Shown here: positions 15,390-16,648 of the stretch, in pieces
Layout of the letters: each line of letters opens with the position of its first letter
How positions within the stretch are numbered: position 1 is the first letter of the stretch
NCBI GenBank assembly: GCA_017654855.1
Contig: CM030333.1
Span: 2,046,001 to 2,110,000, forward strand
Source of the DNA: Podospora anserina
Taxonomy: Eukaryota
Direction: 5' to 3'
Length of the DNA: 64,000 nucleotides
Notes under the pieces: generated by a model
Database searches by the model: none
The model's input: only the letters and a program-made list of their open reading frames with translations
What the model was told of the DNA's origin: nothing
Program-made: the position numbers and the translations under genes

Positions 15390-16648
15390 ATGCCGACCTC
15401 GCAGAGCGACCGGGTGGCCATTCTGCGGAGCCATCGTGTTCGATGGTTTGTGGTCGGCTGGCTAGCTTGGTTGAGCATTTCTGGTGCGCTGGTGATCGCA
15501 CTAGCACCGTCTTCTCCCGTCATAATCGCCGTCCTCTCTGGAGTATGGGTCTTGTCAGTCACCGGTACCATCGCAGTATCCTTCCTGCTGCTGTTGGCAT
15601 CACCTACCACTGAGCGCAACAAGCCATTGTGGCTTCGACTGAAAAGCAAGTATAGCCGCAACTTGGGGAGTACTGTCATAACCCTGTTCGCGGCGGCGGT
15701 CACGCTACCCATTCTGTACTGGAGTCTCTGGGATCCCGAGCGCAGGCGGAACGTTATTACGTTTGATCGTGATACTGTGGTAGGTCACCCCCAACTTCAC
15801 ACCCTATTCTTGAACCACTGTCTCATCAGTATTGAAACCTCGCAGGACAGCGTTCTCTTCCCCTCGATCACCCTCTTCCAACGAGCCGACTGGACATCGC
15901 AGGCCAACCTCGAAGTTGACCCACCCCCCAAGTGTTTCCTGGGATGGCACAACGAAACCGCCCCAGACTGCGATATCACTTCAACATCATACACCGGATC
16001 TTGCCAATGCAGCAACAGATGGAGTGACAGAATCGAAGACTTTGAGTGGCAAAACACCAGCTACCGCGCCTTCACTCTGACGTCGTCCCTCTCGATGGTG
16101 TCTCCAATGCCAACATACCAAATGATCGTCCAAGCGTTCTTTACCTGTCAGTTAGCCCCCTCCTCAACCCCGAATATACCTGAAAGCTGACACAGAAAAC
16201 AGATGACACCACCAAAGCCCGCACCGACGCCTCCCGCGTTCTCTCCCCCAGCCTCTGGATCGCCGTTTACGACCCAACATTGACAGTCCGAGAAGCACTA
16301 GAGAACGGCTACACCCGCATGGTTCTTATCAATGCCAACGGTATGACTGCTCTGAATCTCGGACTCAACTACCGCGAGGCGTTGGGCCATGCACCGGCGT
16401 ATGACTACCACCTCTCCATATCGACAACACCCTCGATGGATTTGCAGTGCGACACATCTGATGCAAAGGGAGCATCAGGGCTGTGCTGGTTGAGCTTGTT
16501 TCTGCAGTTTCCGAGTTTCGAGAGGCAGGTGTCGCGGCAGGATGTTGCGATGAAGTGGCAGGATGTCGCGGCTGATGCTGGTTCGTGGTTTGCGCTGTTT
16601 CAATTGCTGGGGTGGATTACTTCTGGGTTGGCGTGGTATAAGGGGTGA
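15390..16648 (+). CDS. 378-aa membrane protein with Cys-containing ectodomain; PAC/ASIC/ENaC-like architecture (see findings)
   Basis: Exons 15390-15779, 15846-16146, 16203-16648 splice in frame (1137 nt). Three N-terminal hydrophobic helices, a ~230-aa loop with six Cys and N-glycosylation sequons (NET, NTS), and one C-terminal helix. Confidence 0.8.

Follow-up and report, generated by a model that had tools for sequence, protein, structure and literature searches.

PODANS_2_4725 of Podospora anserina belongs to a Pezizomycotina protein family with a predicted PAC/DEG-ENaC fold

PODANS_2_4725 of Podospora anserina is a three-exon gene on the plus strand at positions 15390-16648 of the window, the 64,000-nucleotide stretch of DNA analyzed here (contig CM030333.1 of assembly GCA_017654855.1, positions 2,046,001 to 2,110,000). 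Structure prediction indicates that its product very probably has the fold known from the channel PAC (ASOR, TMEM206, PACC1) and from the DEG/ENaC channels including the ASICs. This had been proposed in an earlier note made from the DNA sequence alone, and the inference of a PAC/ASIC-type fold is supported by two structural models. The gene belongs to an unannotated family spread over the Pezizomycotina. The predictions support the view of this family as a fungal group with PAC/DEG-ENaC fold, unrelated in sequence and equipped with two additional N-terminal helices. This suggests that filamentous fungi, too, possess a type of channel which until now has been described from animals almost exclusively. 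Concerning an actual function of PODANS_2_4725 as an ion channel, fold and conservation leave the chances about even.

The first model was calculated with AlphaFold2 for the orthologue P0020, which differs in 4 residues from the product of the window, on the basis of a 32-sequence alignment. With a predicted local distance difference test score (pLDDT) of 85.6 and a predicted template modelling score (pTM) of 0.73, it exhibits helices at residues 4-36, 42-70, 90-119 and 349-370, and about 13 strands together with two short helices between residues 121 and 345. Helix 90-119 passes directly into strand 121-129, and at the other end of the ectodomain helix 349-370 follows immediately on strand 337-345. 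Strands adjoining both transmembrane helices, the lack of which the earlier note had named as a reason to abandon its proposal, are thus present in the model. The PAC subunit fold consists of two transmembrane helices flanking a compact beta ectodomain, and the DEG/ENaC/ASIC proteins have a core palm/beta-ball beta domain between the first and second transmembrane helix (TM1 and TM2); both arrangements are found in the predicted structure.

A Foldseek search of model 1 against the PDB revealed 144 matches with E ≤ 1e-3. Ranks 1-18 were all occupied by PAC/ASOR/TMEM206, with E-values from 7e-13 to 2e-10, target TM-scores of 0.44-0.56 and 10-15% identity. From rank 21, BRTNaC1, ASIC1/2/5 and PDPNaC1 occurred with E-values between 6e-8 and 6e-6. 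A second model was calculated for P0058 from Viridothelium virens (26% identical, 34-sequence alignment), which is only a partly independent check. It reached a pLDDT of 89.7 and a pTM of 0.79 with the same layout as model 1. Here, too, ranks 1-18 were taken by PAC, with E-values between 7e-12 and 2e-9 and a TM-score of at most 0.61, and ASICs came next. Among 48,161 chains the PAC/ASIC superfamily held ranks 1-11, and unrelated helical matches of half the aligned length were found below. The alignment extended over 247 of the 270 PAC residues in comparison to about 230 of the 424 ASIC residues (6ave_A). P2X chains did not appear among the structure matches listed for model 1, and a single one was among those listed for model 2 (rank 42, probability 0.72, TM-scores 0.12-0.14). 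The two extra N-terminal helices described in the earlier note are present in both models, with a pLDDT above 90 in model 2.

Relatives of the protein were collected by several searches. A word-indexed search returned 13 sequences. Using a profile of 11 sequences, HMMER detected 255 cluster representatives with E ≤ 1e-3 among 1.84 billion representatives scanned, 179 of them with E ≤ 1e-10 and 65 with E ≤ 1e-30; many of the 255 are fragments. In a second indexed search all 46 of 46 proteins were termed 'hypothetical' or 'uncharacterized' or carried no name, and a precomputed Pfam domain was recorded for none of the 46. All named members belong to the Pezizomycotina, where Sordariomycetes, Leotiomycetes, Dothideomycetes, Eurotiomycetes and Lecanoromycetes are represented, with the lineage confirmed for four species among them. 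Some genomes contain two copies, for example those of Immersiella caudata and Podospora aff. communis, and no members from Neurospora, Aspergillus, Fusarium or yeast were among the family matches listed. In an alignment of 61 sequences D254 is invariant, and P136, six cysteines, Q226, P246, Y297 and Y299 are conserved to at least 90%.

The conservation of the family is strongest in the ectodomain, namely in the six cysteines, in D254 and in the INANG and AYDY stretches. This domain comprises about 229 residues (120-348), carries the six conserved cysteines as well as glycosylation sequons and is net acidic (25 D+E vs 17 K+R). The N-terminus contains four and the loop 71-91 six lysine or arginine residues; since both segments are rich in these residues, they are probably cytoplasmic. 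From this we infer that the domain 120-348 has the orientation known from PAC and ASIC, toward the outside or a lumen. The last hydrophobic segment is regarded as a membrane span because two relatives have long hydrophilic tails beyond it. A glycosylphosphatidylinositol (GPI) signal at this C-terminal segment was also considered and was rejected on account of the N-terminal transmembrane helices and of the hydrophilic tails downstream in the two relatives.

Within the last helix the conserved positions A356, G357, F360, Q364, W368, S371 and G372 form a stripe. Their spacing of i, i+3/4, i+7, i+11 and i+14/15 corresponds to one face of the helix, and Q364 (29 of 32 sequences), W368 (29 of 30), S371 (29 of 30) and G372 (27 of 30) are kept in nearly all sequences compared. 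In PAC, TM2 is described as the main pore-lining segment in a passage of PMC6663466. The one-sided stripe in the modelled helix fits, as a hint, such a pore lining.

Taken as a whole, PODANS_2_4725 could be explained as a membrane glycoprotein of PAC-like size with four transmembrane helices that acts as a trimeric, ectodomain-gated channel, an explanation which, on the basis of the models, we consider to have an even chance of being right. Three subunits would assemble around a central axis, and the last helix would line the ion pore with its conserved small and polar face. The outward-facing ectodomain would serve as the gating sensor, with acid as one candidate stimulus among several, and the two further helices would form a hairpin in front of the core of two transmembrane helices. 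Gating by protons, which the earlier note had put forward as a possibility, is speculative and appears unlikely.

A number of observations weigh against this channel explanation. PF15122, the Pfam family of PAC/TMEM206, matched none of the 36 family proteins scanned, and the exon translations of the window were unmatched at E ≤ 10. With PF00858 (ASC) 35 of the 36 proteins were unmatched; P0005 alone gave a match, with E 0.14 and 11.6 bits vs a cut-off of 23.6. These 36 proteins comprise 32 scanned at E ≤ 1, subsets of which were re-scanned, and four more. The comparison with the ASC and TMEM206 profiles by HMMER, which the earlier note had proposed as a check, was therefore negative. Three family profiles (11, 32 and 61 sequences) and one orthologue, each searched against 177,635 PDB sequences, revealed no PAC or ASIC chain at E ≤ 10. 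On the structural side, the identity to the PAC/ASIC matches amounts to only 7-16%. Over the whole chain the TM-scores reach modest values, namely 0.31-0.43 by query and 0.44-0.61 by PAC target, at a root-mean-square deviation of 4-9 Å. Further, the alignments behind models 1 and 2 overlap, so that the models are not fully independent. The last helix is weakly hydrophobic (maximum of about 1.15 in a 19-residue window) and ends 8 residues from the C-terminus. In the family alignment helix 349-370 contains no conserved lysine and thus gives no indication of ion selectivity. The ectodomain has no conserved histidine, and D254 is its sole invariant acidic residue; therefore, nothing points specifically to proton sensing. 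In addition, a shared fold alone gives no function, and the two extra helices, which PAC and ASIC lack, could alter the assembly.

Pfam as a whole yielded nothing above threshold, neither for the exon translations of the window nor for the 36 family proteins; weak hits were mostly located on the transmembrane region and spread over unrelated families. The sub-threshold match of P0005 is co-linear with the ASC profile: its residues 296-362, which make up the strands leading to the last helix, correspond to positions 370-441 of a profile 455 positions long. This matched region includes the segment in front of the last helix that the earlier note had aligned to ASIC1. With 36 proteins compared to 24,736 Pfam models, the single ASC match is a lead and not evidence. 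Sequence and profile searches of the PDB gave unrelated matches alone (E ≥ 0.17). In a language-model feature search with the orthologue P0020 a TMEM206 cluster scored 0.82, a level often reached by shuffled sequences, and unnamed clusters from Mucoromycota, Streptophyta and ciliates scored 0.86-0.91. Together, the weak ASC echo in P0005 and the weak TMEM206-cluster echo obtained with P0020 hint at a wider eukaryotic superfamily.

Three other explanations have to be weighed against the channel. The fold itself might be an artefact, be it that the model is wrong or that a generic beta sandwich between two helices resembles PAC and ASIC by chance. Template-free predictions can err, and TM-scores of about 0.4-0.6 at a high root-mean-square deviation together with the missing sequence signal would be in accordance with such an error. 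Two confident models of proteins only 26% identical (pLDDT 85.6 and 89.7, pTM 0.73 and 0.79), Foldseek E-values down to 1e-12 and the clear step from the superfamily at ranks 1-11 of the 48,161 chains to unrelated helical matches at half the aligned length make this highly improbable. If the fold is accepted, it may still belong to a protein that is no channel but acts as sensor, receptor or accessory subunit and whose transmembrane helices would do no more than anchor the ectodomain; the sensing of cell-wall or membrane stress and the secretory pathway are examples of where such a protein could work. A fold match shows no function by itself, and the weakly hydrophobic last helix, very short at its cytoplasmic end, as well as the peak of conservation in the ectodomain with its six cysteines, D254, INANG and AYDY would suit this role. 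The patchy distribution of the family among the matches listed, with Neurospora, Aspergillus, Fusarium and yeast missing, would fit an accessory component too. In contrast, all solved proteins of this fold that the searches returned are subunits of ion channels. Moreover, the small and polar stripe of the last helix, which is kept down to about 25% identity, exceeds what a passive anchor needs, and the same holds for the conserved polar motif in front of the preceding helix. We therefore place a non-channel role on the unlikely side, though ahead of the other alternatives.

The third explanation goes further than the channel reading and proposes a proton-activated anion channel, i.e. a fungal counterpart of PAC which would release chloride from acidified compartments or act at an acidic cell surface. 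It would be in line with PAC as the top Foldseek match of both models, aligned nearly over the full length, with an ectodomain of PAC-like rather than ASIC-like size (247 of 270 vs about 230 of 424 residues aligned) and with the net acidic character of this domain (25 D+E vs 17 K+R). A lysine in TM2 sets the anion selectivity in human PAC. The last helix of the fungal family lacks a conserved lysine, and likewise the absence of conserved histidines, the single invariant acidic residue and the failure of PF15122 to match any of the 36 proteins speak against it. Hence such a counterpart is rather improbable, less probable still than proton gating as such.

The gene and the features of its product, together with the evidence on which each is based, are as follows:

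15390, plus strand: start codon ATG (sequence, translation).
15390-15779, plus strand: exon 1, residues 1-130, with the N-terminus, the additional hairpin made of helices 4-36 and 42-70, the basic loop, helix 90-119 (TM1 equivalent) and the first ectodomain strand (translation, splice model, structure model, X1 contig from 15331).
15657-15746, plus strand: helix 90-119, the transmembrane helix entering the ectodomain, preceded by Y88, N91, L92, N94 and T95 and ending near the invariant W114 (model, conservation, hydropathy 1.69).
15780-15845, plus strand: intron 1, 66 nucleotides, GTAGGT..CAG, in frame and free of stops (sequence, X1 contig, orthologues).
15846-16146, plus strand: exon 2, residues 131-230 and the first base of codon 231, with the strand of the F-P-S/A motif, four of the six conserved cysteines and both N-glycosylation sequons (translation, alignments).
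16147-16202, plus strand: intron 2, 56 nucleotides, GTCAGT..CAG, with CTGAC ahead of the acceptor (sequence, joint of 16146 to 16203 in X1 and X10 contigs).
16203-16648, plus strand: exon 3, residues 231-378 and stop, with the remaining beta ectodomain (invariant D254, Cys313/Cys325) and the last transmembrane helix (translation, alignment, model).
16556-16621, plus strand: helix 349-370, the last transmembrane helix (TM2 equivalent) (model, conservation).
16646-16648, plus strand: stop codon (sequence).
15346-15465, plus strand: upstream open reading frame (ORF) of 39 codons and stop, out of frame, which begins 44 nucleotides before the main ATG and overlaps the main start (frame of the ORF 15061-15465, X1 leader from 15331).
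15200-16811, minus strand: spliced antisense transcript across the whole gene, extending below 15200 (X2 contig of 2389 nucleotides and X9 contigs, CT..AC joints, i.e. GT..AG on the minus strand).

Joining of the exons gives a product of 378 residues, as stated in the earlier note. The strings quoted there were found again at the helix that enters the ectodomain (from residue 93), behind it (129) and ahead of the last helix (327), and so were the six ectodomain cysteines (160, 172, 183, 185, 313 and 325) and the sequons at N166 (NET) and N200 (NTS). If intron 1 is kept, the translation of the window is identical, letter for letter, to P0019, the 400-residue reference protein PODANS_2_4725 of P. 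anserina S mat+. The annotation of five sibling Podospora species shows the 378-residue form, with 4-10 residues differing from the product of the window, and the distant Pseudogymnoascus orthologue P0010 is continuous across the intron-1 junction, as in the spliced form.

Of the 24 public sequencing runs listed, four (X1, X2, X9 and X10, from four studies) provided the contigs that were mapped to 15200-16900. The RNA nature of the runs is a guess, since it is recorded for none of them; the guess covers 14 runs with a partial word share. The exactly intron-less joints argue for RNA. The strand of the contigs was deduced from splice-site dinucleotides, and the contigs give no expression level. 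The X1 contig (1306 nucleotides) spans 15331-16758 and omits exactly 66 and 56 nucleotides at GT..AG. With both introns spliced in X1, an mRNA for the 378-residue protein exists, and the retention of intron 1, which the earlier note had named as grounds against its proposal, does not apply to at least this transcript. One X10 contig omits intron 2, and another (15549-15790) extends 11 nucleotides into intron 1; thus some retention of intron 1 may occur in PODANS_2_4725 transcripts. The 400-residue reference model probably carries a false, intron-encoded insertion of 22 residues in the first ectodomain strands, unless it represents a minor isoform. The analysis accordingly corrects the reference gene model from 400 to 378 residues.

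Sense-spliced contigs come from X1 and X10, and antisense contigs from X2 and X9. The antisense transcript contains introns at 15306-15374 and 15538-15607 and leaves both plus-strand introns unspliced; its joint of 15305 to 15375 was also observed in an X10 contig. The upstream ORF 15346-15465 is located within the transcribed leader and overlaps the antisense intron 15306-15374. The X2 antisense contig reaches about 900 nucleotides below 15200, toward the minus-strand ORF 13970-14770. The antisense transcript may represent a long 5' leader of this minus-strand neighbor or a natural antisense RNA. A coding gene on the minus strand beneath it was considered and rejected, with the longest minus-strand ORFs comprising 137, 115 and 87 codons and the plus-strand protein being conserved in five fungal classes.

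Further features were observed in the vicinity. Rfam reported a tRNA at 13530-13642 on the plus strand (48.3 bits, E 3e-9), which presumably contains an intron because 113 nucleotides cover a model of 71 positions; ARAGORN reported no tRNA at 13000-14000. The minus-strand ORF 13970-14655 exhibits a signal-like hydrophobic N-terminus, a cysteine-containing segment, a stretch rich in Ser, Thr and Gly and a hydrophobic C-terminus. Judged by these sequence features it resembles a wall protein that is secreted or GPI-anchored; it matched no Pfam family. A minus-strand frame of 537 codons at 19954-21564 matched Sugar_tr (E 5e-76) and MFS_1 of Pfam and constitutes an ordinary sugar-transporter gene.

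According to a passage in PMC6663466, PAC has no homologues beyond vertebrates and one hemichordate. A BLAST survey that included Fungi reports DEG/ENaC candidates from holozoans and, beyond these, only from a single alveolate and a single stramenopile (PMC10507113), and a survey of pathogenic fungi names ASICs in a sentence which apparently lists absent channel families (PMC3410928). The likeness between PAC and ASIC/ENaC has been termed 'structural convergence' (PMC7904269). In the full-text literature, which leaves subscription journals outside its coverage, no paper on a fungal protein of the PAC/ASIC fold was found, and the name of the gene led to nothing relevant either; clusterings of the AlphaFold database may already link the family. 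We tentatively propose, as a possibility that falls somewhat short of an even chance and builds on the models, that the trimeric ectodomain-gated channel of the PAC/DEG-ENaC kind is an old eukaryotic design and not an invention of animals or holozoans. The Pezizomycotina family would then be a diverged true homologue and the first of its kingdom, a stimulus-gated channel with a four-helix subunit, in which a pore signature of Q364, W368 and S371-G372 would replace the GAS belt and the PAC lysine. If this is true, the origin of the channel architecture would move far back in the history of eukaryotes, and the finding would bear on the question of homology versus convergence between PAC and ASIC/ENaC. 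The opening of a two-helix pore by a beta-domain sensor could be studied in Podospora on a minimal example that is accessible to genetics, and the very small channel repertoire of fungi would gain a new class.

Compared to the known systems, the fungal protein resembles PAC most closely in its overall architecture. Similar to PAC, a transmembrane helix is followed by a compact beta ectodomain of about 230-240 residues, a further transmembrane helix and a very short C-terminus, and the best Foldseek matches of both models are PAC structures (E 7e-13 and 7e-12 for models 1 and 2). In contrast to PAC, the family has no detectable sequence similarity (PF15122 in none of 36 proteins, no PDB sequence match) and carries no conserved lysine in the last helix. 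With four instead of two transmembrane helices it differs from both PAC and ASIC. A likeness to DEG/ENaC/ASIC is found in the conserved strand with F-P-S/A-(I/V) soon after the first core helix, which reads F-P-A-V in some members and may correspond to the motif behind TM1 quoted in the earlier note. The sub-threshold ASC match of P0005 in the co-linear region before TM2 points in the same direction. Compared to that of ASIC, the ectodomain is shorter by about 140 residues, and the peripheral finger, thumb and knuckle are judged to be absent because only about 230 of the 424 ASIC residues align. DEG/ENaC/ASIC proteins are marked by a GAS belt in TM2 and an HG motif before TM1. The product of PODANS_2_4725 shows neither a 'GAS' string in its last helix, as the earlier note had stated, nor an 'HG' before the core transmembrane helix; in their place S371-G372 and N91-L-G-N-T95 are conserved in the family.
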